Below, one piece after another: positions 1,495 to 36,347 of a stretch of 38,391 nt of DNA. This stretch comes from Vulcanimicrobiota bacterium. GTDB taxonomy: Bacteria > Vulcanimicrobiota > SpSt-956 > JAKJGF01. A model generated the notes under the pieces. It searched no databases. It was not told where the DNA came from and saw nothing but the letters and a program-made list of their open reading frames with translations. Each line of letters opens with the position of its first letter. The stretch's first letter is position 1. Location: assembly GCA_040217665.1 (NCBI GenBank), contig JBEHWP010000003.1, positions 1-38,391 on the forward strand. Direction: 5' to 3'. The position numbers were made by a program, and so were the translations under genes.

Positions 1495-1576
1495 ATCAGT
1501 GATCAGTAATCAGTAAGCAGTGCTCAATGAATATAATATATCTAACTGATCACAGGTCACTGCTCACTGATTACTG
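1495..1576. repeat. Heptamer fold-back element: (ATCAGTG/ATCAGTA)n left arm, AT-rich spacer, (CACTGAT)n right arm
   Basis: ATCAGTG ATCAGTA ATCAGTA AGCAGTG ... AACTGAT CACAGGT CACTGCT CACTGAT TACTG; the arms are imperfect reverse complements. Confidence 0.85.
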
Positions 1577-1582
1577 TACATA

Positions 1583-1766
1583 AGTTCCCCCACCGTGCCG
1601 TGTGCAGATCACTTTGAATCCTGACGTAAATCAGGTGGGAACCACTATAAGTAGCTTAAGGATCCCTCACCATGGAGGTATTCACAACACTACTGGAATT
1701 AAGTTCCCTTCAAAAAATTGTCGGATCAAATATATAACCCGCAAACACAAACAAAGCAGGGGAATA
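1583..1766 (-). ncRNA. ssrS: 6S RNA
   Basis: About 184 nt directly downstream of aspS, the known synteny of Bacillus 6S-1. On the minus strand the ends pair (TTCCCC/GGGGAA, TGCGGGTTA/TGATCTGCA), GGGAACT/GGTTCCC closes the apical stem, and the 3' side has the 6S-typical CACCTG..CAGGATTCAAAG..ACGGCAC. Exact ends approximate. Confidence 0.85.
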
Positions 1767-1820
1767 TTTATTTCGTCTATTAAATTTTAGTCGTCTAGTT
1801 TAAAAAAATTTCTCAAAAGA

Positions 1821-1849
1821 ATAATAGCATATTTTTCATTTAATTGCAA
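1821..1849 (-). promoter_or_regulatory. Sigma70-type promoter for 6S RNA
   Basis: Minus strand TTGCAA-17 bp-TATTAT with extended -10 TGn. Confidence 0.65.
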
Positions 1850-1861
1850 TGAAAAAGATTA

Positions 1862-3619
1862 TCAGACAACTTTTATATTTAACTCTTTAAGCTGTCTTTC
1901 TGATACCTCAACAGGTGCTCCCGTAAGAGGGCATGCTGCGGTCTGAGTCTTTGGAAAAGCTATTACATCTCTTATGCTTTTTTCTCCTGCCATAAGCATT
2001 ACAAGTCTGTCAAGTCCTGGAGCTATACCTCCATGAGGAGGAGCACCGTATTCAAGAGCTTTCAGGAGAAATCCGAATTTATATTCTGCTTCTTCTGCAG
2101 TAAGACCCATAATCTTAAAGATCTTTTCCTGTATATCTTTCCTGTGGATACGTATGCTTCCGCTGCCAAGTTCTGTACCGTTAAGTACAAGGTCATAAGA
2201 ACTGGCTCTCACTTTAAGAGGTTCAGAATCCAGATATTCTATATCTTCCGTAAGAGGACATGTGAAAGCATGATGTTCTGCATCTATTTTCTTTTCTTCT
2301 TCATTATAAGAGAAAAGCGGGAAATCTATGACCCAGAGAAAACTGAATTCTCCTTCTTTAATAAGCCCCAGTTCCTGGGCAAGAGAAATTCTTATTTCTC
2401 CGAGTACACGGCTTGCCACTTCTTTTTTATCTGAAACAATGAGTATTACATCATTATCGGAAACAGAAAATCTTGACTTTAAATTTTCTATATCCTCCGG
2501 TGTTAAAAATTTCTTTATAGAAGATTTAATATCGCCGCCTGCAAAGGAAACCCACGACAATGCCTTTGCTCCCAGTTCTTTAGCCTTTTCATTCAATTCA
2601 TCAAACTTCTTCCTGGAAGCAGATGAGAAATTCTCCACTTTTATGCCTCTTACAACACCGCCACACTGAATATTCTCTTTGAAAGCATTGAACTGTGAAT
2701 CTTTAAATATGTCAGAAAGCTCTTCTATTTTCATGCCATAGCGAAGATCAGGTTTATCAATACCATACCAGTCAATGGCATCTCTGTGTTTCAGTCTGAG
2801 AAAAGGTACGGGAATATCAACATGAAGTACATCTTTAAAAATACGTCCCATAAGACCTTCTGTTATATTAAGAACATCTTCCCTTTCCACAAAGGACATT
2901 TCCATATCTATCTGAGTAAATTCAGGCTGACGGTCTGCCCTCTGGTCTTCATCTCTGAAACATCTGGCTATCTGATAATATTTTTCAAATCCCGATACCA
3001 TAAGCAATTGTTTAAATAATTGCGGAGACTGAGGGAGTGCATAGAATTTACCCCGGTGAATCCTGCTCGGTACCAGATAATCTCTGGCGCCCTCAGGAGT
3101 ACTGTTAATAAACACAGGTGTTTCTATTTCAAGAAAACCGTTTTCTTCAAGATAATTACGGGCACTCCTCGTAACAGATGCTCTGAGCTTAATATTTGAT
3201 TGCATCCTTTGAGTTCTGAGATCGAGATAACGATATTTAAGACGGGTCATTTCATCTACACGACTATCTCCGGAAATATTAATGGGAGGTGTGGGACATG
3301 TATTTAATATGATAAGTTCTACGGCCAGAATATCTACTTCACCTGTCGGAAGTTTTGTGTTTATCGTTCCTTCAGGCCTTGCACATACCTCGCCTGTAAC
3401 AGATATAACATATTCCGATTTGAGTTCTCCCGCTTTTTCATGGAGTTCTTTATATTTTTCAGGATTGAACACTACCTGTGTTATTCCTTCTCTGTCACGG
3501 AGATCTATGAAAATAAGGCCTCCTAAATCTCTTCTTCTGTGTACCCATCCCATAAGAGTAACTGATTTACCTGTATCTGCAAGTCTCAGTTCACCACAGT
3601 TATGAGTTCTTTTTTTCAA
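1862..3619 (-). CDS. aspS: Aspartate--tRNA ligase (AspRS)
   Basis: RRRDLGGLIFIDLRD, ALPQSPQLFKQLLM, RCFRDEDQRADRQPEFTQIDME, GAPPHGGIAPGLDR. Start moved to TTG 3619 (AAGGGGTGG upstream); the ORF-track extension to 3682 reads through a heptamer repeat. Confidence 0.97.
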   Translation of the reverse strand: MKKRTHNCGELRLADTGKSVTLMGWVHRRRDLGGLIFIDLRDREGITQVVFNPEKYKELHEKAGELKSEYVISVTGEVCARPEGTINTKLPTGEVDILAVELIILNTCPTPPINISGDSRVDEMTRLKYRYLDLRTQRMQSNIKLRASVTRSARNYLEENGFLEIETPVFINSTPEGARDYLVPSRIHRGKFYALPQSPQLFKQLLMVSGFEKYYQIARCFRDEDQRADRQPEFTQIDMEMSFVEREDVLNITEGLMGRIFKDVLHVDIPVPFLRLKHRDAIDWYGIDKPDLRYGMKIEELSDIFKDSQFNAFKENIQCGGVVRGIKVENFSSASRKKFDELNEKAKELGAKALSWVSFAGGDIKSSIKKFLTPEDIENLKSRFSVSDNDVILIVSDKKEVASRVLGEIRISLAQELGLIKEGEFSFLWVIDFPLFSYNEEEKKIDAEHHAFTCPLTEDIEYLDSEPLKVRASSYDLVLNGTELGSGSIRIHRKDIQEKIFKIMGLTAEEAEYKFGFLLKALEYGAPPHGGIAPGLDRLVMLMAGEKSIRDVIAFPKTQTAACPLTGAPVEVSERQLKELNIKVV

Positions 3620-3642: not shown

Positions 3643-3665
3643 CGTGACGCGTGACGCGTGACGCG
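3643..3665. repeat. Heptamer array (CGTGACG)x3
   Basis: CGTGACG CGTGACG CGTGACG CG just upstream of the aspS RBS. Confidence 0.9.
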
Positions 3666-3783: not shown

Positions 3784-3818
3784 AGGTTTTGCGTTTCTGG
3801 TTTCAGGTTTTGGGTTAT
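3784..3818. repeat. Degenerate heptamer array (NNGTTTY)x5
   Basis: AGGTTTT GCGTTTC TGGTTTC AGGTTTT GGGTTAT. Confidence 0.6.
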
Positions 3819-3827: not shown

Positions 3828-5558
3828 TTAAATATTAATAATCAATATACCTGCTGAAGTAAGTGATTGTATGGCAATAATAAGACCGAGAATAAATATA
3901 AAGAGATAGGAAAAGGCTGCTACTCTGTTTAAAAAATTCTTTTTCGGATAATATTTTTCGAGCATCTTACCGGCAGTAACCATTACTATGCCAATGGCAA
4001 TAAGAACTGCAGCCAGGCCGAAACTGAAAGCCACTATTACAAGTAATCCGAGAATTATTCTATTGAGGGCAACGGCACTTAACAGAACTACCAGTGCATC
4101 AGGGCATGGCACTATACCACCGCTTACGCCGAGAGCAATAAGACTCAGAAGGGTAATTTTTTCCGGCAATTTGTGCACATGATATTTCCCACCATGATAG
4201 TGTCCGCCTGCTTCGTCAACATGGCCCTGTTCATGGTTTCTATGTTCATGGTCATGTTTATGGCTATGGTCATGACTGTGGTCGTGCTCATGTTTATGGC
4301 TATGGTCATGACTGTGGTCGTGCTCATGTCCATGACTGTGAGCTTGACTGTGTTCATGAGTGTGTTCATGGTCATGTTTATGGCTATGGTCATGACTGTG
4401 GTCGTGCTCATGTCCATGACTGTAATCTTGACTGTGTTCATGAGTGTGTTCATGGTCATGTTTATGGCTATGGTCATGACTGTGGTCGTGCTCATGTCCA
4501 TGACTGTGGTCATGCTCGTGCCCATGGTCGTAACTGTGGCCATGTTCAGTTGATGCAACAGCCTCCTTATGTCTTATTATAAAAAGCCATATGCCTATTA
4601 TAGAAATAAGGATTCCTGAAGAAAAACCTATCCAGGGATATAATTTTTCCGGCATAACGTATTTAAATGCAAAGAGGCATATTACTCCCAGCAATATAAC
4701 ACTTATTGTATGGGTAAAAGTAACTATGATACCAAGCAGTATGGCATGCTTTATAGTTCCCCTGCTACCTATAAGATAGGCTCCGACAATGGTTTTACCA
4801 TGTCCCGGAGCAAACGCATGGAGAGCACCGAGAATTACAGCAATACCAAGAGCTACAAGGACAACACTTAAATTTAAATTTTCTTTTGTAATAAGTCCGA
4901 CAAGGCCATTGTCTCCCTGAGTTTCAGGAATATTCGGTTCGGAAAATTCATGGATATTACCTCCGACAGAACCTTTCACAGAAGAAAAAACTATATCTGC
5001 CTTTGTACAGACTGCATTTTTTATATTTTTGGGTTTTTCAGGAGCACTTAATATGGTAACAGAATCTTCACCTTTAACCATTATTTCCTTCCATCCGGGA
5101 GTGGACGTAAAATTATCATCATGAAAATATAGTTTATTTTCACCTTTTTTCAAAAGCCCTTCAGATACAGATGCCTCGAAAAGATAATTCACTTTTAATG
5201 TGGAAAGTTCACCTGTTCCTGTATTTACTATAACGTTAGAATCTATGGTTTTAATATTTAACGATTGCTCATTCAGTTTCATTGTAATATTTTCGAGAAC
5301 TTTTTCTGTTGCCTGTTCCAGATAGATTTTTTTTTCTTCATCTGTATAAATAAAATCCTGATTTTTATCCATAATTTTAAGCTGACTGAAGGCAGAAGCT
5401 TCAGGAAGACGAAGCAGATATTGCAGGGTAATTCTGTCTGCGGAAATAGAAATCTGGCTTACAGCATCAATCCTGAGATAACCGAAGGGATGGGATAAAA
5501 CTCCGGACGGAAAGATAAATAAGAAACATATTACCAGAGAAATAATTTTTTTTAACAT
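3828..5558 (-). CDS. Nickel/cobalt transporter, RcnA/NicO (HoxN-like) family, with N-terminal exported domain and very long His-rich loop
   Basis: LGALHAFAPGHGKT, TFTHTISV and SGGIVPCPDALVVLL motifs; hydrophobic TM segments; signal peptide followed by HP; about 50 His in the loop. Confidence 0.88.
   Translation of the reverse strand: MLKKIISLVICFLFIFPSGVLSHPFGYLRIDAVSQISISADRITLQYLLRLPEASAFSQLKIMDKNQDFIYTDEEKKIYLEQATEKVLENITMKLNEQSLNIKTIDSNVIVNTGTGELSTLKVNYLFEASVSEGLLKKGENKLYFHDDNFTSTPGWKEIMVKGEDSVTILSAPEKPKNIKNAVCTKADIVFSSVKGSVGGNIHEFSEPNIPETQGDNGLVGLITKENLNLSVVLVALGIAVILGALHAFAPGHGKTIVGAYLIGSRGTIKHAILLGIIVTFTHTISVILLGVICLFAFKYVMPEKLYPWIGFSSGILISIIGIWLFIIRHKEAVASTEHGHSYDHGHEHDHSHGHEHDHSHDHSHKHDHEHTHEHSQDYSHGHEHDHSHDHSHKHDHEHTHEHSQAHSHGHEHDHSHDHSHKHEHDHSHDHSHKHDHEHRNHEQGHVDEAGGHYHGGKYHVHKLPEKITLLSLIALGVSGGIVPCPDALVVLLSAVALNRIILGLLVIVAFSFGLAAVLIAIGIVMVTAGKMLEKYYPKKNFLNRVAAFSYLFIFILGLIIAIQSLTSAGILIINI
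4244..4543 (-). repeat. Coding tandem repeat for the His-rich loop (84-bp unit with a nested 36-bp duplication)
   Basis: 28-aa unit SHGHEHDHSHDHSHKHDHEHTHEHSQ(DY/AH) in about 2.6 copies, plus a repeated HEHDHSHDHSHK. Confidence 0.9.
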
Positions 5559-5593
5559 AGTGCCTCCCTAAACATTTTATATTTTATAAATAT

Positions 5594-5653
5594 AGTGAGT
5601 AGTGAGTAATAAGTAAATCACTGTCTTCACCACTCACTACTCACCAATCACTA
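5594..5653. repeat. Heptamer fold-back element (AGTGAGT)n ... (ACTCACT)n
   Basis: AGTGAGT AGTGAGT AATAAGT ... TCACCAC TCACTAC TCACCAA TCACTA, abutting the stop of the TolB-like gene. Confidence 0.85.
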
Positions 5654-6595
5654 TTAATAAATAGATGGAGTCCAATCATCACTGCTACTGGAGAAAGCTT
5701 TTTCTATATTCTTTCCCCCTGAATCCATAATAAAAATTTGCCAGTTAGGCCCCTGAAGATCAGAACAGAAAACTATTTTTTTCCTGTCCCTGGAAAAATG
5801 GGGACAATGAGAACCAAATCCCCCTTTTGTGAGATGTCTGATGCCGGTACCATCTGATTTCATGGTAAACAGGTCATAATCTCCGTCTCTGTCAGAAGCC
5901 CATATGATATTATTACCATCAGGTGAAACAATAGCCTGAATATTATGGTAATGAACAGTCGTATTGGTAAGATGAACCTGTTTTGAGCCATCTACGTTCA
6001 TAACAAATAAATCTGCATTTCCATCTCTGTAGGAAGTCCAGAGTATTTTTTTTCCGTCAGGAAAAAAGGACGGATCCCTGTCTCTTGTAACTTCTACAGT
6101 GGGAGGCATAGGGCTGTCATAAGACAGAGGTTGTTCCTTAACAGGTTTATCAAAAGTAAGTCTCTTCTGATTGGAACCGTCGGAGTTCATTGTATAAACC
6201 TCTTCATTTTTATCCCTTGTAGAAATAAAGACTGTCTTTTTTCCGTCACCGGAAAAGGAAGGCATCTTGTTAGTACCGCTGCTGGACGTAAGTTGCTTTT
6301 TATCCGAACCGTCGACATTCATTATAAAAATCTGTGCTCTGCCATCTCTGGAGTAAGCTGTATAAATTAATTTTTTACCGTCTCCTGACACACATGGTTC
6401 TGTATCCACACAGGGGTTTGCAGATGTAAGATTCTTCGGTTCACCTCTGGAAGGATAAAAACATGAATATATATCAAGGTTTCCCTTCCGATCAGATGCG
6501 AAGTAAATACTATAAGTATTTGTCCCCTCTGCAAGGAAAGTGCAGAGTAAAATTGATACAAAAGTCAAAATGGTCCAGAAGAAATGTCTCTTCAT
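5654..6595 (-). CDS. Exported TolB-like (PD40) beta-propeller protein
   Basis: Signal peptide; repeated P-S-F-x-x-D-G-K-K and S-x-R-D-G-x-x-(D/E/Q)-(I/L)-(F/Y)-x-M-N-x-D-G-S blades. Confidence 0.88.
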   Translation of the reverse strand: MKRHFFWTILTFVSILLCTFLAEGTNTYSIYFASDRKGNLDIYSCFYPSRGEPKNLTSANPCVDTEPCVSGDGKKLIYTAYSRDGRAQIFIMNVDGSDKKQLTSSSGTNKMPSFSGDGKKTVFISTRDKNEEVYTMNSDGSNQKRLTFDKPVKEQPLSYDSPMPPTVEVTRDRDPSFFPDGKKILWTSYRDGNADLFVMNVDGSKQVHLTNTTVHYHNIQAIVSPDGNNIIWASDRDGDYDLFTMKSDGTGIRHLTKGGFGSHCPHFSRDRKKIVFCSDLQGPNWQIFIMDSGGKNIEKAFSSSSDDWTPSIY

Positions 6596-13251: not shown

Positions 13252-13374
13252 CGTGACCCGTAACGTGTGACGGGTATACTATAATGCGTGATACGTAATG
13301 CGTAACTAATCTCAGGGCGTTTAATTAAACGCACATGCTCACCATTTACGCCTCACTTTTCACTTTTCACTCTT
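13252..13374. repeat. Mosaic element: (CGTGACG/CGTAATG)n + palindrome GCGTTTAATTAAACGC + (TCACTTT)n
   Basis: 21-mer TCAGGGCGTTTAATTAAACGC (13312-13332) is identical to 24502-24522. Confidence 0.85.
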
Positions 13375-23295: not shown

Positions 23296-23297
23296 TT

Positions 23298-24460: not shown

Positions 24461-24540
24461 CGTGATGCGTGATGCGTAATGCGTAATAATTATTTAACCA
24501 ATCAGGGCGTTTAATTAAACGCCACTCACCCTTCACTACT
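24461..24540. repeat. Mosaic element: (CGTGATG/CGTAATG)n + palindrome GGCGTTTAATTAAACGCC + (TCACCCT/TCACTAC)
   Basis: Perfect 18-bp palindrome at 24506-24523; the right arm overlaps the GT9 stop codon. Confidence 0.85.
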
Positions 24541-27305: not shown

Positions 27306-27331
27306 AAAATAAAAAATATCTCTTCATTAAT

Positions 27332-27372
27332 CGTGACGCGTCACGCGTGACGCGTGACGCGTGACGCGTTAC
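27332..27372. repeat. Heptamer array (CGTGACG)x6 with internally inverted units
   Basis: CGTGACG CGTCACG CGTGACG CGTGACG CGTGACG CGTTAC. Confidence 0.9.
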
Positions 27373-27408
27373 AATGACTTCAAATAATCTGTACGAGGAG
27401 CTTATAGA

Positions 27409-27897
27409 TTATGCAGGGTCAATTAGAAACAGAATATCACCGCTCTGAACAACTTCTTCATTTTCCCTCAGGCACTTAACTACAGTTCCTGACACTTCTG
27501 CCGTTATTTCATTCATAAGCTTCATGGCTTCTACAATACATAGAGTTTGCCCTGCAGATACTTTATCTCCTATCTCAACAAAAGGAGGAGCACCGGGCCA
27601 GGGAGCTTTGTAAAAAACTCCTACAAGAGGTGAAAGGACTTTATAATAGAGGCTGTGCTCTTCTTCTACTTTACTTTCCTGAACCGGAGGCATCACTTTT
27701 TCAGCCTTCTGCACAGTCTGAATTACAGGAGGAGATTCATAAACTGCACCGGCAGGAAGAACAAAAGAAGGGCCATCTTTTTTTCTGTCTCTTCTTATTT
27801 CTATTTTTACTCCATCATATTCTATAACTAATTCAGATATATCACATCTGTCAGATACTTCAATCAATCCCTGTATGGCATTAAAATCCAGATTCAT
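27409..27897 (-). CDS. accB: Acetyl-CoA carboxylase biotin carboxyl carrier protein
   Basis: SPLVGVFY, PFVEIGDKV, biotinylation motif EAMKLMNEI. Confidence 0.95.
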   Translation of the reverse strand: MNLDFNAIQGLIEVSDRCDISELVIEYDGVKIEIRRDRKKDGPSFVLPAGAVYESPPVIQTVQKAEKVMPPVQESKVEEEHSLYYKVLSPLVGVFYKAPWPGAPPFVEIGDKVSAGQTLCIVEAMKLMNEITAEVSGTVVKCLRENEEVVQSGDILFLIDPA

Positions 27898-27913
27898 AAT
27901 TCACCAAACCTTT

Positions 27914-28016
27914 TCAGTGATCAGTGATCAGTGATCAGTGATCAGTTATATTAGTGAGCAGTGAGTAATAATAAGTAAATAATATTCTATAAACTCATTA
28001 TTCACGACTCACTGAT
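27914..28016. repeat. Heptamer fold-back element (TCAGTGA)x5 + (AGTGAGY) ... (ACTCACT)
   Basis: TCAGTGA x4, TCAGTTA, then AGTGAGC AGTGAGT; right arm ACTCATT ATTCACG ACTCACT GAT. Confidence 0.88.
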
Positions 28017-28038
28017 TTTATCTTTCGAAAACATATTT

Positions 28039-29313
28039 TTACCCGAAATGGCAACCGCTCCGCTTCTTCAGTAACTCTATTAAATCATCTATTTTTACCG
28101 AAATCTGATCGCCTTTTTTCATATCTCTTACTATAACTTCTTTCTGTTCAAGTTCCCTGTCGCCTATTATTATAGCAAGAGGAATATTCATCTTATTTAC
28201 AAGATTTAACTGTCCCTTAAGTCCTCTGTCACTTACGGACAGTTCTGCTGAAATAAACTGTTCTTCTCTTATTTTTGTAACAAGTTCAACACCGTATAAA
28301 GATGCTTCTTTACCGAGAGGAATGACCATGAGACCGGTTTCCTGTAGCGGGCCAAAAGATAATCCCTGTTTTTCCATAACCATAATAACCCTTTCAAGTC
28401 CTGCTGCAACACCGACACCGGGAGCGGGCTTTCCTCCAAGAACTTCCATAAGATTATCATATCTTCCGCCGCCGCATAAAGAGCTCTGAGCACCGAGATC
28501 CTGAGAAACAACTTCAAATACTGTTTTTGTATAATAATCAAGACCTCTCACAAGGGTATGCTCAATATTATAGGATATATTAATTTTATCCAGACAGGTC
28601 GTAACGGTGTTAAAATGATCCTTACATGGCTGACAGATTGTCTCAAGAGTGGAAGGACATTTAGCGGCAATCTCTCTGCAACCTTCATTTTTACAATCAA
28701 GTATTCTGAAAGGATTCCTTTCAAAACGGCTCCTGCAATTATCACAGAGTGAAGCCAGATTATTTCTGCAAAATTCTATTATCTTTTCTCTGGAATCAGG
28801 TCTGCACAGGGCACAACCTATACTGTTAAGACTTACAGATAATCCTTTAAGCCCGAGCTTCTTATAAAATCTAAAAATTAAATCTATAACTTCCACATCC
28901 AGAAGAGGGCTGTCAGAGCCTATTACTTCTATTCCAAGTTGATGGGCCTGACGATATCTTCCATGTTGAGGCCTTTCATACCTGAAAATAGGACCTGCAT
29001 AAAATAATTTCAAAGGAGGAAAAAGGGACATATTATGTTCAATAACAGAACGCATAACAGGAGCAGTCCATTCAGGTCTGAGAGTAAGACTCCTTCCTTT
29101 TTTATCCAGAAAGGTGTACATTTCTTTTTCTACAATATCAGTTGTTTCACCGATACCACGGCTAAAAAGTTCCGTATGTTCAAAAACTGGTGTCCTGATT
29201 TCTTTGTAGCCGTATAAAAAAGAGAATTTCCTGAATAAATCTTCTATATATTGCCACTTTTCCACAGTTCCAGGCAGTATGTCAACAGTTCCTCTTGGTA
29301 CTTTACAGAGCAT
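28039..29313 (-). CDS. hisS: Histidine--tRNA ligase
   Basis: PRGTVD, IVEKEMYTF, LRPEWTAP, FRYERPQ, LVRGLDYY, GGGRYD. Confidence 0.97.
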   Translation of the reverse strand: MLCKVPRGTVDILPGTVEKWQYIEDLFRKFSFLYGYKEIRTPVFEHTELFSRGIGETTDIVEKEMYTFLDKKGRSLTLRPEWTAPVMRSVIEHNMSLFPPLKLFYAGPIFRYERPQHGRYRQAHQLGIEVIGSDSPLLDVEVIDLIFRFYKKLGLKGLSVSLNSIGCALCRPDSREKIIEFCRNNLASLCDNCRSRFERNPFRILDCKNEGCREIAAKCPSTLETICQPCKDHFNTVTTCLDKINISYNIEHTLVRGLDYYTKTVFEVVSQDLGAQSSLCGGGRYDNLMEVLGGKPAPGVGVAAGLERVIMVMEKQGLSFGPLQETGLMVIPLGKEASLYGVELVTKIREEQFISAELSVSDRGLKGQLNLVNKMNIPLAIIIGDRELEQKEVIVRDMKKGDQISVKIDDLIELLKKRSGCHFG

Positions 29314-29380
29314 TTTTTATAAACCTCTCAATATTTTTTTGCTGACCTGAGCATGAGCATATATAGTATATTTAAGTTGT

Positions 29381-29450
29381 CGTGACGCGTAACATGTAAC
29401 GCGTGACGGGTTTAATCCCTGAGCATCACACGTTACGCTTTACACATTAC
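29381..29450. repeat. Heptamer fold-back element in the hisS leader
   Basis: CGTGACG CGTAACA TGTAACG CGTGACG, centre GGGTTTAATCCC, then CATCACA CGTTACG CTTTACA CATTAC. Confidence 0.85.
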
Positions 29451-29520
29451 CAGGTTATTATTTATGGATAGCTATAAACCTGACTATAATAAAAACTCAT
29501 CTCAATAAAAACATTATCAA

Positions 29521-29549
29521 ATTATACAGGATTTTTTTTATTATTGCAA
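29521..29549 (-). promoter_or_regulatory. Sigma70-type promoter for hisS
   Basis: Minus strand TTGCAA-17 bp-TATAAT. Confidence 0.7.
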
Positions 29550-29558
29550 TTAATAAAT

Positions 29559-29587
29559 AAAAAATCGCTCTGATTTCTTCAGAGCGA
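29559..29587 (-). terminator. Intrinsic terminator downstream of the aldehyde dehydrogenase gene
   Basis: Minus strand TCGCTCTGA-AGAAA-TCAGAGCGA-TTTTTT. Confidence 0.8.
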
Positions 29588-29722
29588 CAGGTGCAAAATT
29601 AGCCTTTGTAATATATTATTCTTGTTAATTACTCATAAGAATTATACCGGTAAAAATTTAAAAAACTGTTTTTAAATGTAAAAAAATGTAAAATTTTAGC
29701 TCATTTTACAGTCTGACTTTTT

Positions 29723-31150
29723 TCATATACTCATATTTAAAACAAGTAATTTAAGTTCCGTCATTTCTTCTATAGCATACCTGAGCCCTTCTCTTCCGAA
29801 ACCAGATTCCTTTATACCTCCGTAAGGCATGTGATCTGCCCTGAAAGTAGATAAATCATTGATTATTACCCCTCCTGTTTCTATATGTTCAAAAGCGTAA
29901 AAGATTTTCTTTATATCACCGGTAAAAACCCCGCACTGAAGTCCGAAGATTGAATTATTAACCATATCTACTGCTTCCTTAAAATCTTCATAAGCCATAA
30001 TAGATACAAGAGGCGAAAAGGCTTCTTCACAGAATACCTTCATTGAAGGTTTTACCTCTGTAAGAACTGCAGGTTCTACCATATTACCACCTGTCGGCTT
30101 GCCTCCGAGTAACAATCTGGCTCCTCCACTGAGAGCATCTTCTATAAAGCTCATAGCCTTATCCTTTCCTGCAGAATTAACAAGGGGGCCAATATCTGTA
30201 TTTTCATCAAAAGGATCGCCTGTTTTCAGTTTTTTAGTTTCTTCTATAAATTTATCCAGAAAAGTCTGGAAAATCTTATTCTGGACGAAAATCCTCTGAA
30301 CCGATATACACACCTGGCCGGAAAAAGAAAAGCTGCCTGTAACACATCTCTTTACTGCAAAATCAACATCACTGTCATTATGGACTATAACACCTGCATT
30401 GCCTCCCAGTTCAAGAGTCACCTGTTTTTTAGTAGCCAGACTTTTAAGATGCCACCCCACAGGAGGACTTCCTGTAAAAGAAAGAACTTTCACTCTGTGG
30501 TCTGAAGCAAGTTTTTCTGCTATACGGGAAGGACAGCAGAGAGCATTTACTGCACCTTTCGGAAAATCTGTTTCTCCTATTATTCCTGCAAGTTTAAGAG
30601 CAGTCATTGGAGTCTGGGAAGATGGTTTCATAATTACAGAGTTTCCCGCTGCAATTGCAGGAGCAACTTTGTGGGCTACCAGATTAAGAGGGAAATTAAA
30701 GGGGGAAATGGCTGCCACCGGCCCCCTGGGGAATCTCCCTGTTATTGCCTTTCTGCCGGCAGATGCCGGGATAATATCAAGAGGAAAATATTCACCGTTT
30801 ACTCTGGATACTTCTTCAGATGCCAGATTGAAGGTGTTTACGGCTCTGTCCACTTCAACCCGTGAATCCTTTATCGGTTTCCCCGCTTCCAGGGTTATAA
30901 GTTTTGCAAAATCTTCTTTTTCTTCCTTTATTCTACGTGCTATATACTTTAAAATTTCTACTTTCTTATAAACAGGAAGTTTTTTTGTAAGATTAAATGA
31001 ACTGGATGCACAGGCAATGGCTTCTTCCAGTTCCTCATATCCTGCCTGAGATACCTTTCCTGCAACCTCTCCGCTATAAGGATTAATTACATCGAGTTTA
31101 ACAGAAGAATCTACATAGGTACCGTTTATAAAATTTTCAAATTCCAGCAT
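29723..31150 (-). CDS. NAD(P)-dependent aldehyde dehydrogenase (lactaldehyde dehydrogenase/GapN-like)
   Basis: ISPFNFPLNL, KPSSQTP, FTGS, LELGGN, GQVCIS, EEAFSP, PYGGIKESGFGREG; start moved to ATG 31150 (AAAGGAGA). Confidence 0.95.
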   Translation of the reverse strand: MLEFENFINGTYVDSSVKLDVINPYSGEVAGKVSQAGYEELEEAIACASSSFNLTKKLPVYKKVEILKYIARRIKEEKEDFAKLITLEAGKPIKDSRVEVDRAVNTFNLASEEVSRVNGEYFPLDIIPASAGRKAITGRFPRGPVAAISPFNFPLNLVAHKVAPAIAAGNSVIMKPSSQTPMTALKLAGIIGETDFPKGAVNALCCPSRIAEKLASDHRVKVLSFTGSPPVGWHLKSLATKKQVTLELGGNAGVIVHNDSDVDFAVKRCVTGSFSFSGQVCISVQRIFVQNKIFQTFLDKFIEETKKLKTGDPFDENTDIGPLVNSAGKDKAMSFIEDALSGGARLLLGGKPTGGNMVEPAVLTEVKPSMKVFCEEAFSPLVSIMAYEDFKEAVDMVNNSIFGLQCGVFTGDIKKIFYAFEHIETGGVIINDLSTFRADHMPYGGIKESGFGREGLRYAIEEMTELKLLVLNMSI

Positions 31151-31195
31151 AAAATCTCCTTTTTCAATTTTATAGTTACGTTCATAATAAATAGC

Positions 31196-31350
31196 CGTGA
31201 CCCGTGGCAGGTGGTGCGTGATGAGTGATGCGTAATGCGTAATGCGTAATGCGTAATGCGTGGCCTCACCGGTACCGGGCAAACACAGAGGGTCGCCCTT
31301 ACTCACTCTTCATTCTTCACCCTTCACTTTTCTCTACTCACCACTCACCA
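31196..31350. repeat. Longest mosaic element: about 10 GT(G/A)A heptamers + REP-like hairpin + TCAC-arm heptamers
   Basis: Includes (CGTAATG)x4, then TCACCGGTACC GGGCAAACACAGAGGGTCGCCCTTAC, then TCACTCT TCATTCT TCACCCT TCACTTT ... TCACCAC TCACCA. Confidence 0.9.
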
Positions 31351-31356
31351 AAATTA

Positions 31357-33216
31357 TCATAATTCCTGCCATGAATATATTGTGAGTATAGGTTTCACAG
31401 GAATCTTACCTGATCTCTGATTAAAATATTCTTCATAAAGAATGATGGAAGAAGCACCGTTTAACCTGACATCACCATTATGGCCCTGAGGAGAAACACC
31501 TGTCTTCTTCCTGGTGATAACATTGCCTACAATTCTAACAGGCCACCATGCGTAAGTCCCCGGCAAGGTAGTGGTATAAAAATCACCATGCGTAAAAAAT
31601 ACTCCCTGAAGAAAAACATCATTTGCACCTGTATAAAGACTGGGATTATATTTAAAGGTGTCCCAGCTTATTTGCTCTATCCAGTTTGAACATTCGGAAG
31701 GCATGTATTTAAACCAGTATGCAACATCATCAGGTACCGGTTTTAAACCTTTATCTACGAGTTTATAATTTGCAACTCCCTGCAGAATCTGTCTTCCGCT
31801 GATACCGGGGAAGCCTACAAGAGCCTTGGAAATATTACTGTTATTGTACCATGCCGTAGCCGTAGCTGCATCCACCTCCTGAAGTCCTAACATATTGAAT
31901 ACTTCAGCAACTTTCATGATATCCTCCGGTGCTTTCTGATACCACTCGTCCACCATACCGGTCCACTCCCAGCTCCTAAGAACATGACCTATACTTATAT
32001 CACCATCTGTAAATACGGCAACACCGTGTGAGTTTCTCCGGTCTACAGTATACTGATTGACTTCACCTATCTTTAAAGCCATCCCTCTCATATTAGGATC
32101 AGGATTATTGGGGTCTACATAACCGGCAACATATATATTTCCGTAAGAACTATTAAGTATAGTGCCATCTATTTTCAGTATACCATTTACAAATAAACTG
32201 GCATTGTTAATCAAATGAATGTTTCCCTCTATATTCCCCGACATGGTATCACCGGCTACGTAAAGACTGCCATTTACAAAGGTATTATGCTCTACAGTTA
32301 AACGACCTCCATGATAATATGTCCAATTGTCTCCTATATCAGGGTCTACATTGAATGAAGGGCGGCATATACTGTTAGCATCCATGCCTGAAGGTTCTGT
32401 TGGATAAGCTACAGGCGTATAAACAGCAACAGGATCTCCATCTGTTAAATTCGGATCATTGAGGTTCCAGTCTACAAGTCCTATTATATCTATCTGATTC
32501 GGCTCAAGAAATCTCTGATCTATTGTCACGCCGGACGAAGGGGCAGGTATATCTCCGTTGGTGCAGAGAAGACTTCCGTTCAGAATACTATATCTGTTCA
32601 GATTATTATAAGTAATATCTCCATGAGAATAAAGGGTCCCCGGTCCTGGACTCAGGGTATTAATATTTTCAATACCTGTTACCAGAATTCTGTCATCACT
32701 TAAAGATATTGAGCCATCAACACCTGAACCGAAATATGTGTGTTTAACAGTTACTTTAACAGTTCTCTTAAAACCATTGTATTCACCCTGTCCTACAATC
32801 AGGGCAGTTTCTCCGTAAATATCAGTACCTGTAAGAGACGGGTAAAAAGAAGGACCTCCTATTACAGTTCCTTTTTGCGGATTATTGAGATTATCGACAT
32901 AAGCGACTTTACATTTTCCCTTGAGTCCGTTCATACCGGTTATATCTCTGGTAATAAAGGACATGGAAGACGGGGGCCCTGGCATATACCCGGGGCCCCA
33001 CGCAGTAACAGAGGCCCAGTCAGTTTCAAGCTCATATATGCCATACATACAGGCAGAATTCGCAAGGTTAAGAGCCTGAAATCTGGAATTGATATTTCCC
33101 ATAGTTCTTATACTTCCTGTACTCAGAGTAACTATAGATAAAGAAATAATCAGTAAAATTACCATTACACACAGTACGGTAAAAAGAACTATACCATGCT
33201 TCTTAAAATATTTCAT
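31357..33216 (-). CDS. PilX/GspK-like large minor pilin
   Basis: KKHG|IVLFTVLCVMVILL hydrophobic N-terminus lacking E5, QALNLANSA motif, beta-rich C-terminal region; ATG 33216 after AGAGGTG. Confidence 0.7.
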   Translation of the reverse strand: MKYFKKHGIVLFTVLCVMVILLIISLSIVTLSTGSIRTMGNINSRFQALNLANSACMYGIYELETDWASVTAWGPGYMPGPPSSMSFITRDITGMNGLKGKCKVAYVDNLNNPQKGTVIGGPSFYPSLTGTDIYGETALIVGQGEYNGFKRTVKVTVKHTYFGSGVDGSISLSDDRILVTGIENINTLSPGPGTLYSHGDITYNNLNRYSILNGSLLCTNGDIPAPSSGVTIDQRFLEPNQIDIIGLVDWNLNDPNLTDGDPVAVYTPVAYPTEPSGMDANSICRPSFNVDPDIGDNWTYYHGGRLTVEHNTFVNGSLYVAGDTMSGNIEGNIHLINNASLFVNGILKIDGTILNSSYGNIYVAGYVDPNNPDPNMRGMALKIGEVNQYTVDRRNSHGVAVFTDGDISIGHVLRSWEWTGMVDEWYQKAPEDIMKVAEVFNMLGLQEVDAATATAWYNNSNISKALVGFPGISGRQILQGVANYKLVDKGLKPVPDDVAYWFKYMPSECSNWIEQISWDTFKYNPSLYTGANDVFLQGVFFTHGDFYTTTLPGTYAWWPVRIVGNVITRKKTGVSPQGHNGDVRLNGASSIILYEEYFNQRSGKIPVKPILTIYSWQEL

Positions 33217-33434
33217 TAAGTTCACCTCTGATTTACTGGAAATTGTATGTGTCTATACGTTTAAAGATTTCTTAAAAATAGTCTATATATAAATTCTAGT
33301 CTATAAGCTTCAGATAGTCAAGATTTTTTCTTCAACTGATTTTTAATAAAATATATGTTAAACATGATAATAATTTGATATAATAAATTACAGTATTATC
33401 ATTACAAATATATAAGGAATAACTGATAATTACA

Positions 33435-34102: not shown

Positions 34103-34846
34103 TCAATTATTAGCAGGCTTTACATCGGTAGTCAGAACAGTCTGTTCATAGATATCCTTACCGTTTGCATCTGTCCCCTGTTTAACCCTGGCATCGACTG
34201 TAATATGTACCACCGGTATACCTACATTAACAAGAGAAGGATTATATAAATCAAATTCTATACTATAAATCTCTTTTGCTATTTTTCTGTCATCTGTAAT
34301 AGAGCCTGAGGAAACACTGTAGGCAGGAGGGCAACTGAGAGGATAAGATGGTTTAAGGAAATATTCGAGTTTATCCTTCGGAACTGCTTCAGGATATAAA
34401 GAATTTGCCGGGTGACCTGTAACCTGAATTACCCTTCTATAAACCTCTTTTGTTCCCATTTTTTTGAAATAAACTACATATCTGTTCCACTCTAATTTAC
34501 CGTTCTTCATATTTGTATTACCTGATGCATCATCATTATTTCTGGAGGTAGGAAAACAGATTGCATCCCATATTTCATTCGGATCTCCTCCGTTGTCATG
34601 GCTTTTTTTTATTGCTATACCTGGCTCATAACTTTCATTTAATTCCCTGCAGAGTCTGTCAATAGACATCTGTGCTTCCTGCTGTGTTACCAGTTTATTC
34701 CTGGATCTATGAAAAGCTTTTATTCCCTGAACACATATCGTACCTATGGCAGAAAGAAATATACCGAACAGAAATATGACAATCAATAATTCTATAACAG
34801 TAAAAGCTTTTTTATCTTCTTTTACCTGTTTAATATTTATTATCAT
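34103..34846 (-). CDS. Type IV prepilin-like protein (PilW/GspJ-like)
   Basis: KKA|FTVIELLIVIFLF, QQEAQMSIDRLCREL, C-terminal LTTDVKPAN. Confidence 0.85.
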   Translation of the reverse strand: MIINIKQVKEDKKAFTVIELLIVIFLFGIFLSAIGTICVQGIKAFHRSRNKLVTQQEAQMSIDRLCRELNESYEPGIAIKKSHDNGGDPNEIWDAICFPTSRNNDDASGNTNMKNGKLEWNRYVVYFKKMGTKEVYRRVIQVTGHPANSLYPEAVPKDKLEYFLKPSYPLSCPPAYSVSSGSITDDRKIAKEIYSIEFDLYNPSLVNVGIPVVHITVDARVKQGTDANGKDIYEQTVLTTDVKPANN

Positions 34847-34882
34847 TTGAACACCTGTATGTGAAATTATAAATCTAGTGGA

Positions 34883-34953
34883 TGCTCTCGTAACGCTTAA
34901 AGCGTGACGGATATAAGACCTTTACTACATGCTTATGGTCAGGTCAATAATTA
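34883..34953. repeat. Dispersed intergenic repeat, copy 2 (71 bp)
   Basis: Matches 14658-14721 with a 7-bp insertion TTAAAGC. Confidence 0.85.
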
Positions 34954-35127
34954 CATATAAAATACTGTAATATTTATTCCTTCAGAATAAATATATTTTA
35001 TTTTACAGTAAAAGTCAAGCATGTAGATTGCGTTAAAAATCGTAAAAAAACACTTTTTCAGGCATTAGTCCGTGTTATAAAAAGCAAATTTATGATATAA
35101 TTTCATCATTATTCAAATCATAAAGGA

Positions 35128-36288
35128 GTGATTTTTTTGCTTTATCAGGTAATTTTATTTCTATTTATCTATATGCTCTCATGGTGTCCGTCTGTATCAG
35201 CAGATGAAATACACGGAAACACAGTAGCACAGAAAGGGCAATCCACCACCTATAAAGAAAAAGCGGCAAAAGCCCTTGAACATTTTGAAAAAGGTAAGGA
35301 AGCCTATATGGCAAATAATTTTGAAACTGCTGAAATTGAACTCAGGCAGGCTCTTGCCCTTAATTCAAAACTTTCGGAAGGGCACCTCTATCTTGGCAGG
35401 ACCCTTGCAGCAGTGAAAAGATATGATGAAGCAATAGGAGAACTGGAAATATATTCCCGCTCCCATTACAATGAGCCGGAAATTTATACGGAAATAGCCC
35501 TTATATATGAAAAAAAGAGTAATTTCCCGAAAGCTATGACTTATTATAAATATGCCCTGAGTGCCTATCCCGAATTTAATAATATATTTCATAAAGATCT
35601 CGTATCTACCGACAGTGAAATTAATCTTTTAGAACATAAGCTGAAAGATAATGATTATGATAATGAAACAAGAATAAAACTGTTTCTTATTTACGAAAAG
35701 AAGGCAAGATTATCAAAAGCAATATATCATATAAAAAAAATTCTCTCTTCTCTCAACAGGGACTCTGTTCTTAATAAAGACAGAGTATATACGGTGGAAG
35801 ATTACAAAGAAGAAGGTATAAAATCCCTGGAAAAAAAAGAGTTTGATAAATCATTAAACGAGTTTACCTGTGCCCTTCAATTAGATCCGAAAGCTATGGA
35901 ATGTTATTATTATATGGCTGTAGCGTATGAAGCACTGAAAGACTATAAAAATGCTCTTGAATGCTTTAAACTCTATACCTATTATGCCAGTGCTTCTGCA
36001 GAAAATCTTCACGATTGTTACAGAAGAATGGGGGAAATTTATGAAAAACTCGGAAATTACCGGGAAGCTCTTTCCCGATATAAATATTCCCTTAACTGTA
36101 TCCCTGAATATACAGAGATGTTTAAAATAAAAGTAGATATAAGCGATAAAGAAATAAAGAGACTGAAAAGTAAACTTAAGACAGAGCCTGATGACATAGA
36201 AACAATGGTTAAACTCGCTATTATATATGAACAAAAAGGTAAATTTCAGGAAGCTCTTAAGTTTTATAAAGTGCTTATCAAGAAGTAA
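35128..36288 (+). CDS. Exported tetratricopeptide-repeat protein
   Basis: Hydrophobic N-terminus ending VSA; TPR patterns (EGHLYLGRTLAAVKRYDEAI); two homologous halves; exact start uncertain. Confidence 0.87.
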   Translation: MIFLLYQVILFLFIYMLSWCPSVSADEIHGNTVAQKGQSTTYKEKAAKALEHFEKGKEAYMANNFETAEIELRQALALNSKLSEGHLYLGRTLAAVKRYDEAIGELEIYSRSHYNEPEIYTEIALIYEKKSNFPKAMTYYKYALSAYPEFNNIFHKDLVSTDSEINLLEHKLKDNDYDNETRIKLFLIYEKKARLSKAIYHIKKILSSLNRDSVLNKDRVYTVEDYKEEGIKSLEKKEFDKSLNEFTCALQLDPKAMECYYYMAVAYEALKDYKNALECFKLYTYYASASAENLHDCYRRMGEIYEKLGNYREALSRYKYSLNCIPEYTEMFKIKVDISDKEIKRLKSKLKTEPDDIETMVKLAIIYEQKGKFQEALKFYKVLIKK

Positions 36289-36347
36289 TAGAGTAAAAAG
36301 TAAAAAATGAATAAAACGAAATTTTACTCAATACTCATTCTTAAAAA

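Follow-up and report, generated by a model that had tools for sequence, protein, structure and literature searches.

Oriented heptanucleotide arrays with a common GT(G/A)A core at gene ends of a Vulcanimicrobiota bacterium

Introduction

Tandem repeats with a 7-nt unit lie between the genes of certain bacteria. The short tandemly repeated repetitive (STRR) sequences of cyanobacteria are heptanucleotide intergenic repeats, and although heptamer repeats have been known for decades, in cyanobacteria and later in Beggiatoaceae and Bacteroidetes, they have to our knowledge no agreed function. Another abundant intergenic class comprises the repetitive extragenic palindromic (REP) sequences, the bacterial interspersed mosaic elements (BIME) and the REP doublets forming hairpins (REPIN), with their REP-associated tyrosine transposases (RAYT); these are imperfect palindromes of 20-40 nt with a conserved tetranucleotide, arranged in inverted pairs and situated after genes. 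Here we describe heptanucleotide arrays in a 38,391-nt stretch of DNA from a Vulcanimicrobiota bacterium (contig JBEHWP010000003.1, positions 1 to 38,391, forward strand, of assembly GCA_040217665.1; hereafter the window) and in the genome to which it belongs. They share a core, GT(G/A)A (GTRA), repeated every 7 nt, and they hold a fixed orientation to gene ends.

TAACTGA repeats are intergenic heptamers of marine Beggiatoaceae, some Cyanobacteria and Bacteroidetes. The part of the Beggiatoaceae account drawn on here places 147 of 170 sets in forward orientation just upstream of start codons, and treats the function of these sense-oriented leader heptamers as unsettled, with a post-transcriptional role suspected (MacGregor 2015, PMC4679880). 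The same source summarises the survey by Mrazek (2007) of long simple sequence repeats with units of 5-11 nt. In Nostoc PCC 7120, contiguous heptamer repeats lie near start codons or promoters and their deletion altered reporter output; the authors propose a binding partner and effects on transcription or translation, in the sections of that preprint used here (bioRxiv 10.1101/2022.06.06.494920).

The literature searched, supplements not included, yielded no account of a core common to hundreds of unit classes, of a class of arrays that starts at stop codons, of near-absolute polarity at gene ends, of heptamers in Vulcanimicrobiota, or of polarity at tRNA, tmRNA and 6S RNA genes.

Array census and the shared core

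The window samples a lineage-restricted system of about 2,560 short heptanucleotide tandem arrays in a digester bacterium that is not a cyanobacterium, a conclusion of which we are practically certain. The source genome (7.06 Mb, 36% G+C) is a fragmented draft in 1,217 contigs with 5.97% contamination. Arrays in window and genome were called with Tandem Repeats Finder (TRF), and overlapping period-7 rows were merged. Gene models came from our own open reading frame (ORF) and hexamer caller with starts refined by Shine-Dalgarno matches, not from a standard gene finder.

Period 7 accounts for 2,637 of the 8,209 TRF rows genome-wide; the runner-up, period 9, has 1,076. Merging gave 2,559 arrays in 234 unit classes, 68.7 kb altogether or about 7% of the non-coding DNA. 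Most (2,074) lie outside ORF calls, and 213 of the 485 inside fall in the first 150 nt of over-extended ORFs. The two features that define heptanucleotide long simple sequence repeats, an over-represented 7-nt tandem unit and a mostly intergenic position, are thus both present. About 20% of all genes are flanked by arrays, housekeeping genes included (HisRS, AspRS, tRNA genes).

In most classes of spacer of at least 60 nt, 33-50% of spacers bear arrays. Divergent spacers are the exceptions (1 of 27 at 60-119 nt; 26% at 120-249 nt). The arrayless divergent spacers of the window, 33217-33434 and 34847-35172, are highly conserved across four relatives and hold a TTGACT...TAGAAT-like promoter region, in contrast to the fast-evolving spacers that bear arrays.

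Read cyclically, the GT(G/A)A core occurs on one strand only in 1,912 of the 2,559 arrays (75%), on both strands in none and on neither in 647; its chance in a random heptamer of the genome's base composition is 0.129. More than 200 unit classes obey this common rule, the dominant units being CGTGACG, CGTAACG, GTGAAAA, CGTGATG and CGTAATG. In the window the pattern GTRA-N3-GTRA-N3-GTRA has 28 matches against 0.04 expected, a number that none of 100 shuffles attained. The preliminary description, made from the letters of the window, had proposed a period-7 system with a common GT(G/A)A core and fixed polarity, and both window and genome bear it out.

Polarity relative to gene ends

Where two core arrays lie at most 60 nt apart, the GTRA arm precedes the TYAC arm in 320 cases and follows it in 4 (binomial p = 3e-89), with 29 and 19 pairs on the same strand. 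All two-armed spacers of the window (1495/1545, 5593/5627, 13253/13339, 15927/15944, 29382/29426 and 31215/31303) have the GTRA arm first. Lone arrays behave likewise, with GTRA on the plus strand in the left half of a spacer and on the minus strand in the right half. The polarity is present in all four arrangements of flanking genes and is therefore independent of gene orientation.

A genome scan of array orientation against start and stop codons, as the preliminary description had advised, gave a strongly non-random result. We call arrays after a gene trailers and arrays before it leaders, and write GURA and UYAC for the core in the sense of that gene. At the last base of the stop codon, 5.6% of genes are covered by GURA in sense and 0.08% by UYAC; at +10 the values are 8.5% and 0.63%. 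Upstream of starts, UYAC reaches its maximum of 6.6% at -30 to -40, against 0.6% for GURA. Counted as arrays within 40 nt, there are 453 with UYAC in sense against 45 near starts, and 549 with GURA in sense against 107 near stops; in short spacers, the leader of the following gene accounts for many of these 107. Arrays with unique flanks alone give 427 against 37 near starts, 513 against 85 near stops, and 218 against 0 adjacent pairs. The strand that runs from gene to spacer thus carries G-T-R-A every 7 nt, so that transcripts read (GURA-NNN)n at the stop and (NNN-UYAC)n before the start. The earlier proposal that an mRNA shows GURA after a stop codon and UYAC before the next ribosome-binding site agrees with these counts.

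Leader arrays lie a median of 22 nt from the start codon, and in 333 of 459 cases the gap holds a Shine-Dalgarno-like tetramer. Among 4,816 complete genes, 451 have a leader array and 503 a trailer array. In short operon-like spacers the median gap between arms is 17 nt. The ends differ in their units: stop-side and start-side counts are 88 and 16 for GTGAAAA, 56 and 3 for GTGAAGA, 34 and 7 for GTGAGTC, and 52 and 168 for CGTGACG, purine-rich units preferring the stop side and CGTGACG being commoner on the start side. In two units without the core, GATAGCT and TAACTGA, the strand that bears the stops is the sense strand before starts (15 of 16 and 9 of 9 arrays), a polarity that runs opposite to that of GTRA arrays where stop codons are concerned.

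Far from genes, GTRA-TYAC pairs still prevail (37 against 4). Dispersed families supply 31:3 of these and unique flanks 6:1, which makes the far-from-gene polarity weak as independent evidence that the modules are polar in themselves. From the positions of their arms, a two-armed spacer is a trailer and a leader, or two trailers or two leaders, that meet, and not a designed hairpin.

Three other possible causes of the leader bias were tried, and none holds as a general rule. Avoidance of start codons does not account for CGTAACG, which has no start codon on either strand and is still biased 60:9 near starts. Avoidance of structure does not fit the commonest leader unit, CGUCACG, which is strongly self-structured (-23.5 kcal/mol for 6 units). 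Compositional background fails as well: the GC skew of leaders is about +0.1 without arrays and -0.15 to -0.21 with them, and since the skew is opposite in array-bearing leaders, the arrays do not amplify a background trend.

Arrays in the window

TRF period-7 rows of the window start at 1495, 1545, 3643, 5593, 5627, 13353, 19015, 19755, 21855, 21941, 24461, 27332, 27914, 31215, 31303, 31336 and 36283. Nearly every coordinate named in the preliminary description is among them. A search with the three-core pattern adds 13253, 13288, 29382 and 29426. The sites at 14605, 14954, 15928 and 16560 have 2-3 units, under the TRF threshold, and are visible on direct reading. The arrays and associated features are as follows.

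1495-1530, plus strand: 5.1 ATCAGTG units, GTRA on the plus strand; leader arm with UYAC in the sense of ORF 2-1474 (minus strand), 24 nt upstream of its inferred start.
1545-1576, minus strand: array of 4.6 units with GTRA on the minus strand; GURA trailer of 6S RNA, beginning 6 nt past its 3' end.
1583-1765, minus strand: 6S RNA gene (Rfam RF00013, 83.1 bits, full-length match), with a two-armed heptamer spacer directly after it.
3643-3665, plus strand: (CGTGACG)3.3 leader, UYAC in sense, 24 nt ahead of the inferred start of ORF 1862-3619 (minus strand), which is aspartyl-tRNA synthetase-like.
3784-3818, no strand assigned: GGTTTTG-type period-7 stretch without the GTRA core, seen by direct reading, under the TRF threshold.
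5593-5608, plus strand: (TAGTGAG)2.3, a GTRA arm, start side of ORF 3828-5558 (minus strand).
5627-5651, minus strand: trailer of 3.6 units (TCACCAC on the plus strand), GURA in sense, 2 nt after the stop of ORF 5654-6568 (minus strand).
13253-13305, plus strand: two GTRA arrays, 13253-13270 and 13288-13305, UYAC in the sense of ORF 10778-13231 (minus strand), leader side.
13315-13332, no strand assigned: GC-rich palindrome GGGCGTTTAATTAAACGC between the arms, a recurrent centre type.
13339-13375, minus strand: trailer of 5 cores (TCACTTT type on the plus strand), GURA in sense, 16 nt after the stop of ORF 13387-14598 (minus strand).
14954-14972, minus strand: weak trace of 2-3 TYAC units on the plus strand, in leader orientation, about 18 nt before ORF 14990-15922 (plus strand) starts.
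15927-15943, plus strand: CGTAATG-CGTGACG-CGT, GTRA arm directly after the stop of ORF 14990-15922 (plus strand), in a 39-nt convergent spacer.
15944-15965, minus strand: second (TYAC) arm of that convergent spacer, GURA when read with ORF 15962-16504 (minus strand).
16562-16579, minus strand: two TTCAC units on the plus strand, GTGAAC-GGTGAAC in sense, within the last codons of ORF 16560-18425 (minus strand), immediately ahead of its TAG stop.
19013-19038, minus strand: (ACGCATT)3.4 on the plus strand, GURA in sense, 93 nt after the stop of ORF 19131-19760 (minus strand); absent from the orthologous spacer of the relative's locus L001.
19755-19771, minus strand: (ACTCACT)2.4 on the plus strand, in sense TAG-TAGTGAGTA, spanning the stop of ORF 19773-21836 (minus strand) and a 12-nt spacer.
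21855-21884, plus strand: (CGTGACG)4.3 leader, UYAC in sense, 19 nt upstream of the start of ORF 19773-21836 (minus strand); conserved in the relatives' loci L001 and L002.
21941-21956, plus strand: (AAAAGTG)2.3 in mid-spacer, adjoining a hairpin centre element that has the minority orientation.
24461-24487, plus strand: (CGTGATG/CGTAATG)3.9 leader, UYAC in sense, 12 nt upstream of the inferred start of ORF 23298-24449 (minus strand); the orthologous spacers of L001-L003 hold different modules.
27332-27369, plus strand: (CGTGACG)5.4, one unit of which is inverted; UYAC when read with the minus-strand genes; conserved in L001-L003, where most changes fall on the central base of the unit.
27914-27946, plus strand: (TCAGTGA)4.7 leader, in sense (ACTGATC)n with UCAC and CUGA, ending 19 nt before the start of ORF 27409-27897 (minus strand); the unit in L001 is AGCTGAT instead.
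29370-29493, no strand assigned: dispersed repeat copy resembling a miniature inverted-repeat transposable element (MITE), about 150 nt, with terminal inverted repeats; at least 26 full copies aligned.
31215-31261, plus strand: (TGCGTAA)6.7, UYAC in the sense of ORF 29723-31150 (minus strand), leader side of the spacer.
31262-31302, no strand assigned: centre element, CCGGTACCGG and then a GC-rich hairpin; 72 CCGGTACCGG sites in the genome.
31303-31350, minus strand: degenerate purine-rich trailer array (TCACTCT, ACTCACC on the plus strand), GURA in sense, 8 nt after the stop of ORF 31357-33216 (minus strand).
36283-36306, plus strand: weak (AAGTAAA)3.3 trailer spanning the stop of ORF 35173-36288 (plus strand), GUAA in sense.

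The two exceptions that the preliminary description had named, the coreless stretch at 3784-3818 and the inverted unit at 27332, are both real. Other repeats of the window are coding. Within ORF 3828-5558 (minus strand), which has a NicO nickel-transporter domain, 4243-4526 holds nested repeats with periods of 12, 18, 36, 84 and 120 nt, rich in CATGAC/GTCATG, whose coding strand is predicted to encode a repetitive His/Asp-rich loop. Within the JAB-domain ORF 19773-21836 (minus strand), 20098-20174 is a perfect 39-bp tandem duplication (2.0 copies, 100%), in frame, of 13 codons.

Stop codons and untranslated RNA genes

The GTRA strand carries 1.02 stop triplets per unit and the TYAC strand 0.05-0.10, as had been read from the window, where far fewer stops were seen on the opposite strand. 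GTRA arrays might therefore exist to put TGA or TAA in all three frames after genes, as a trap for read-through or frameshifted ribosomes. Trailers do present the stop-rich strand in sense. Core and stop codon share a register in 295 of 606 arrays near stops, against an expected 1 in 7; TGA is used by 188 of the 314 genes whose stop lies inside an array, against 28% overall; about 120 arrays begin at least 7 nt upstream of the stop, so that the ORF ends inside the array; and the two strands of CGTRACG differ at the central base alone, TRA against TYA. For arrays that start after the stop, however, a shared register exceeds expectation only modestly (73 of 307; about 44 expected). A trap for ribosomes leaves the 10:1 bias upstream of starts unexplained, and the units without the core put their stop-bearing strand in leaders.

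The decisive point against it is that untranslated RNA genes obey the rule. The sample comprises 49 tRNA and tmRNA genes plus 6S and 16S RNA. Around these 51 RNA genes lie 11 arrays, of which 10 obey the polarity rule. Of the eight arrays whose nearest gene end is an RNA 3' end, seven have GURA in sense, beginning 3-7 nt past the RNA; the exception is the tmRNA spacer's second arm. All three arrays nearest a tRNA 5' end have UYAC in sense and end 7-22 nt before the tRNA, with a fourth 79 nt upstream. A tRNA-Lys/Lys/Leu cluster (contig C289 of the source genome) contains two complete two-armed spacers, and a GURA trailer is present both at tmRNA and at the 6S RNA of the window, which an Rfam scan returned as the only hit there, no centre element reaching the gathering score. 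As untranslated genes share the polarity, a stop-codon trap cannot by itself account for it. Together with a core constraint that is equal in leaders and in arrays more than 60 nt from genes (below), and with the opposite behaviour of the non-core units, this removes the read-through trap, one of the functions put forward in the preliminary description, as a general rule, and we consider it highly improbable as the reason for the arrays.

Arm pairing and terminators

The order GTRA then TYAC brings complementary cores face to face, and the arms could have been selected to pair, as RNA or as a DNA cruciform, in a stem-loop that ends or protects transcripts. Some spacers of the window do fold arm to arm, with z = -5.08 for the 1495/1545 arms of the 6S spacer, z = -5.65 for 5627-5651 with 5593-5608, and z = -4.2 and -3.1 for others; further spacers are no better than shuffles (z = -1.4 and -1.9). 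Over the genome, 115 of 342 GTRA-TYAC pairs are within one base per unit of complementarity, and GC-rich palindromes are often found between arms. Identical variable triplets occur in 51 of the 342 pairs against 45 +/- 5.8 after permutation, a value that 340 of 2,000 permutations attain, and a unit class is common to both arms in just 38. Pairing would be equally good in the reverse order and so cannot explain 320 to 4. The central hairpin element lacks a U-run in sense, where an intrinsic terminator would have one. We accordingly give selection for pairing hardly any credence. Pairing of leader with trailer within one gene, as in circularisation, was a separate candidate and was dropped: 6 of 66 match against 7.8 expected.

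A canonical terminator-like site sits apart from the arrays. The 409-nt spacer 29314-29722 holds, at about 29555-29600 on the minus strand, a hairpin-plus-T-run site, GTCGCTCTGA...TCAGAGCGAC followed by TTTTTT, downstream of an aldehyde dehydrogenase gene. It is kept in L001-L003, as the rest of the spacer is well conserved too. Ordinary intrinsic terminators therefore coexist with the arrays.

Core constraint and array turnover

Differences between adjacent units were counted over 4,538 within-array unit pairs. In the core, G differs in 5.8%, T in 2.2% and A in 2.5% of pairs; R differs in 28.8%, nearly always by a change between G and A, and positions 5-7 in 15-19%. In all contexts the core G, T and A exceed the other positions 3- to 8-fold in constancy, and the 549 trailers, the 453 leaders and 558 arrays that lie over 60 nt from the nearest gene have the same profile. 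The suggestion that more than neutral slippage acts on the core is upheld by this difference, 2-6% at G, T and A against 15-29% elsewhere.

In 765 CGTRAYG arrays the state of R is random in order (lag-1 same-state 0.62 and 0.58, as in a within-array shuffle), and the C/T at position 5 is homogeneous (lag-1 same-state 0.898 against 0.50 for random order) at an overall frequency similar to that of R. Hypermutation of R was considered and rejected: between 20 equal-length orthologous arrays, 12.3% of units have a changed R, and positions 5 and 6 are changed in 13.2% and 11.3%. G, T and A show 0% in that comparison, a value that the detection pattern imposes and that is not evidence.

Turnover was assessed against a relative at 95.6% flanking-protein identity, in a 400-kb sample with 119 orthologous spacers of at least 40 nt. 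Arrays are present in both genomes in 37 of these, in one only in 29 and in neither in 53. Identity is 0.92 for array-free spacers and 0.68 for array-bearing ones. The unit is retained in 18 of 36 orthologous leader arrays; among 29 trailers it is retained in 3 and changed in 14, and the array is absent in 12. Alignments of the window spacers show wholesale unit swaps (ACTGATC to AGCTGAT) and entire two-armed modules gained or lost. The orientation rule is itself stable in the family: a 400-kb sample of a second genome of the family (G002) has 33 GTRA-TYAC pairs against 3 in reverse, and a 149-kb sample from the other genus (G004), with partly different units, has 5 against 0. In the comparison of orthologous spacers that had been called for, individual arrays turn over fast, while the rule persists across the family.

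Such turnover is what a non-functional satellite would show, that is, selfish or neutral slippage arrays whose polarity comes from their production or from the orientations that are tolerated, with no reading factor. Two routes can be imagined, strand-specific growth of 3' ends or repair synthesis from both sides to the middle of the spacer, and purging of orientations that harm genes. The low identity of array-bearing spacers, the presence of arrays in one genome only in 29 of 66 array-bearing orthologous spacers, and the coming and going of entire modules as insertions or deletions all suit this idea. The variable triplets of the two arms are unrelated, as for independent growth from each side, the polarity is independent of flanking-gene orientation and extends to RNA genes, and the GT-rich strand runs 5' to 3' to the spacer centre from either side. 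We list here too the CGTRAYG arrays with random R order and homogeneous position 5, a pattern that plain duplication does not predict. Slippage, however, adds units without overwriting neighbours, so that orientation should be irrelevant to the adjacent gene, and we know of no bacterial process that grows a repeat directionally from an end. Biases of about 10:1 and 5:1 at gene ends, and a core constraint that holds far from genes, need selection or a core-dependent enzyme, and the unit families differ sharply between stop and start sides. On this evidence a satellite without function is a serious possibility, though we think it rather doubtful.

Mobile composites and centre elements

Some arrays ride in mobile composites. 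In the MITE-like copy at 29370-29493 the GTRA arm (29382-29406, plus strand) and the TYAC arm (29426-29450) enclose the centre GGTTTAATCCCTG. The terminal inverted repeats of the family start TTATAGTG...TTTCATAAC, with outward-facing TATAAT-like hexamers at both ends; other copies in the source genome include C363:5096 and C273:6725. When the outer flanks of 1,871 arrays were clustered, 291 (about 16%) fell in clusters of at least 5 (the sizes include 110, 52, 43, 21 and 21), 89 in clusters of 2-4, and 1,491 were unique. About 16-20% of arrays thus ride in MITE-like elements. Terminal inverted repeats, a defined length and many copies are found together in one family, and the 1,491 unique-flank arrays lack them; four more flank clusters are likely to have these features.

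The modules in general might be, or descend from, MITE-like palindromes, with the heptads serving as binding sites of a transposase or REP-type enzyme and the polarity inherited. The family of about 150 nt, with its terminal inverted repeats, internal two-armed module and at least 26 full copies, the clustered flanks, the prevalence of such families among far-from-gene pairs (31 against 3) and the behaviour of modules as insertions and deletions between relatives speak for this. The cleanest polarity (218 against 0), however, is that of arrays with unique flanks. More than 200 unit classes follow one rule, and arrays abut stop codons in register and Shine-Dalgarno sites. Y1 transposases (PF01797) occur in 24 of 41 Vulcanimicrobiota genomes, many of them arrayless, and the array-rich G002 has a weak match only. 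We judge it very unlikely that mobile-element arms explain the system.

Two kinds of centre recur between arms. Palindromes of the type GGGCGTTTAA..TTAAACGCCC, as at 13315-13332, occur between array arms in 18 full copies in the source genome. The other centre, an element of about 45 nt (31262-31302 and about 21885-21925), is a GC hairpin GGGGCGACC..GGTCGCCC adjoining CCGGTACCGGTGAAAACACG. Read in sense, the CCGGTACCGG composite consists of a purine-rich GURA array, the GC hairpin, GGTACCGGTGAAAACACG and then a CAUYACG array. Its hairpin is followed in sense by GGUACCGGUGAAAACACG, with the U-rich side on the antisense strand. In spacers between tandem genes, 39 of 41 classified CCGGTACCGG copies are co-oriented with the genes, and 17 sites are unclassified. 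The CCGGTACCGG centre could be a structured RNA or a processing site.

Host and distribution

The preliminary description had set the arrays beside the STRR repeats of filamentous cyanobacteria, a frame that the host does not fit. The HisRS encoded in the window has three close loci at 97, 93 and 92% identity, and the next best is at 49%. Two of these records are titled Vulcanimicrobiota bacterium and one 'uncultured Synergistia', so that the nearest loci belong mostly to metagenome-assembled genomes (MAGs) labelled Vulcanimicrobiota, in the NCBI taxonomy a phylum of Bacillati. DNA of the window was found in anaerobic-digester, sludge and biogas metagenomes from eight studies.

Among 41 Vulcanimicrobiota genomes, the trait is confined to one family. 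A four-core pattern has 895 + 960 matches in the source genome, 2,389 to 4,060 in three genomes of the same genus, 560 in the sole other genus of the family, and 0-4 in each of the 36 other genomes of the phylum. All five family genomes (G000-G004) carry arrays; they are kin and not independent samples.

Short-read contigs end or pile up at arrays: in four DNA runs over 21500-31400 of the window, depth spikes lie at 27127-27457, 29113-29443 and 31099-31400. Arrays are probably a main cause of the fragmentation of these MAGs. In practice, then, they break short-read assemblies, and they mislead the calling of ORF starts, as the 213 arrays in over-extended ORFs illustrate.

What may read the arrays

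We tentatively favour, at somewhat less than even confidence, the reading that the arrays are made by slippage and kept as orientation-specific transcript-boundary signals, read via the 4-nt core at 7-nt spacing. Replication slippage and homogenisation of units would make and remodel the arrays, and MITE-like composites would spread part of them. Core and polarity would owe their persistence to an orientation-specific reading of the arrays on every kind of transcript, as boundary signals in the processing, stability or insulation of neighbouring cistrons, by a lineage-specific factor that recognises the 4-nt core at its 7-nt spacing. Three-frame stops after genes would be a useful by-product and not the cause. 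We prefer this reading because it fits the polarity at both ends of coding and RNA genes, the unit families specific to each end and the uniform constraint on the core. The stability of the rule in the family, the retention of the unit in 18 of 36 leader arrays, the leader heptamers of Beggiatoaceae (PMC4679880) and the reporter deletions in Nostoc (bioRxiv 10.1101/2022.06.06.494920) also speak for it.

Several points weigh against it. A reader acting on RNA must recognise two sequences, GURA in trailers and UYAC in leaders, and since these cores are reverse complements, a DNA-level process or a common origin would be simpler. Turnover is fast for a functional element, with 29 spacers bearing arrays in one genome only and trailers keeping their unit in 3 of 29 cases, and the presence of a leader or trailer in just 9-10% of genes would make the signal dispensable for most. 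No RNA run was found for 21500-31400 of the window, and any link of arrays to RNA ends, processing or stability is thus putative. No candidate reader emerged from the 41 genomes: HutP was not found in them, and cold-shock domains do not track the trait. The gene starts come from our own heuristic, and the RNA-gene sample is small. Rho is present in the genome, which is uninformative. As for cold-shock domains, they occur in 8 of the 41 genomes searched; in this genus they lie only within long frames of 242 and 598 aa (C285:4142-4321 and C10:18243-18428 of the source genome), and there are no small Csp proteins.

The reverse-complementary cores might instead be read on the duplex, as an oriented lattice of GTRA/TYAC heptads that a DNA-binding protein or translocase reads directionally, leaders and trailers being a single motif facing either way. 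It might be a roadblock with polarity, a site of a nucleoid protein or, like Chi, a signal whose orientation relates to breaks at the middle of the spacer. That leader and trailer cores are exact reverse complements, that the polarity is symmetric about the spacer whichever way the flanking genes are transcribed, and that the core constraint is identical in every context would all follow, and three units of 7 bp would span two helical turns. A pure DNA reader, however, predicts no difference between the unit families of the stop and start sides. Arrays also lie in tRNA clusters and in short operon-like spacers, where a polar block to RNA polymerase would split transcription units and where a promoter has no room, and no candidate protein was found. 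A lattice read on DNA seems to us quite unlikely.

The transcript-boundary reading can be extended to a code, which we offer as an unlikely form of it. To a lineage-specific factor, protein or ribonucleoprotein, GURA would mean 'end of unit' and UYAC 'start of unit', in mRNAs as in the precursors of tRNA, tmRNA and 6S RNA, and the variable triplet would act as an address, trailer fragments pairing in trans with leaders of the same triplet near the Shine-Dalgarno site. If this were true, a genome-wide post-transcriptional network would extend over about a fifth of the genes.

Comparison with known repeat systems

Like the TAACTGA repeats, the arrays described here are short (2-6 copies there), mostly intergenic and sporadic in phylogeny, and the close strains compared there differ by indels in 7-nt steps, in the part of that account considered (PMC4679880). 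The TAACTGA class is itself present, in 14 of 2,559 arrays, with 7.3 copies in the relative's locus L002, and is leader-sense in 9 of 9, as in Beggiatoaceae; this placement, forward and upstream of starts, is shared by GATAGCT (15 of 16), whereas GTRA arrays present the TYAC strand (453 against 45). Unlike the system so described (PMC4679880), with its one favoured heptamer and seldom repeated related heptamers, ours has more than 200 unit classes with a common core, which places it outside that system. The dominant class occurs here at both gene ends on opposite strands, trailers begin at the stop codon, a Shine-Dalgarno sequence usually follows the leader array, RNA genes are flanked, and the phylum is another.

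With the Nostoc heptamers the arrays share their closeness to start codons. The unit and lineage are other ones, and the Nostoc work, in the sections used here, consists of reporter deletions at two promoters and describes no trailer class (bioRxiv 10.1101/2022.06.06.494920). Simple sequence repeats of phase variation lie in coding regions or promoter spacers and switch a particular contingency gene when their length changes; the present arrays differ from such loci in flanking housekeeping genes too. REP, BIME and REPIN elements resemble them in abundance, a conserved tetranucleotide, a preferred inverted-pair arrangement and a position after genes. The arrays are, however, tandem repeats of 7 nt, their arms are complementary at chance level, and Y1 transposases do not co-vary with them, and they do not belong to that class. 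One family here matches MITEs in being about 150 nt long, dispersed in at least 26 copies and bounded by terminal inverted repeats; some 80% of arrays differ from MITEs in having unique flanks and abutting gene ends, and in the family itself the arrays lie inside the element and not at its termini.

The host is not a cyanobacterium, so strict STRR membership does not apply; the units probably differ as well. STRR and, as summarised in PMC4679880, long simple sequence repeats more broadly have in common with the arrays a favoured period of 7 nt, an intergenic position, genome-wide presence in some lineages only, and slippage as the proposed origin. The arrays belong to the known heptanucleotide tandem repeats of bacteria, and are neither STRR in the strict sense nor the TAACTGA system. 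Within that class they follow the cleanest rule that we could find for heptamer repeats, a near-invariant core and near-absolute polarity at gene ends, untranslated genes included. This rule separates hypotheses that have been lumped together, disfavouring hairpins and stop-codon traps and favouring either a reader linked to gene ends or a mechanism that generates arrays directionally, and the fixed orientation makes the function of heptamer repeats directly testable.

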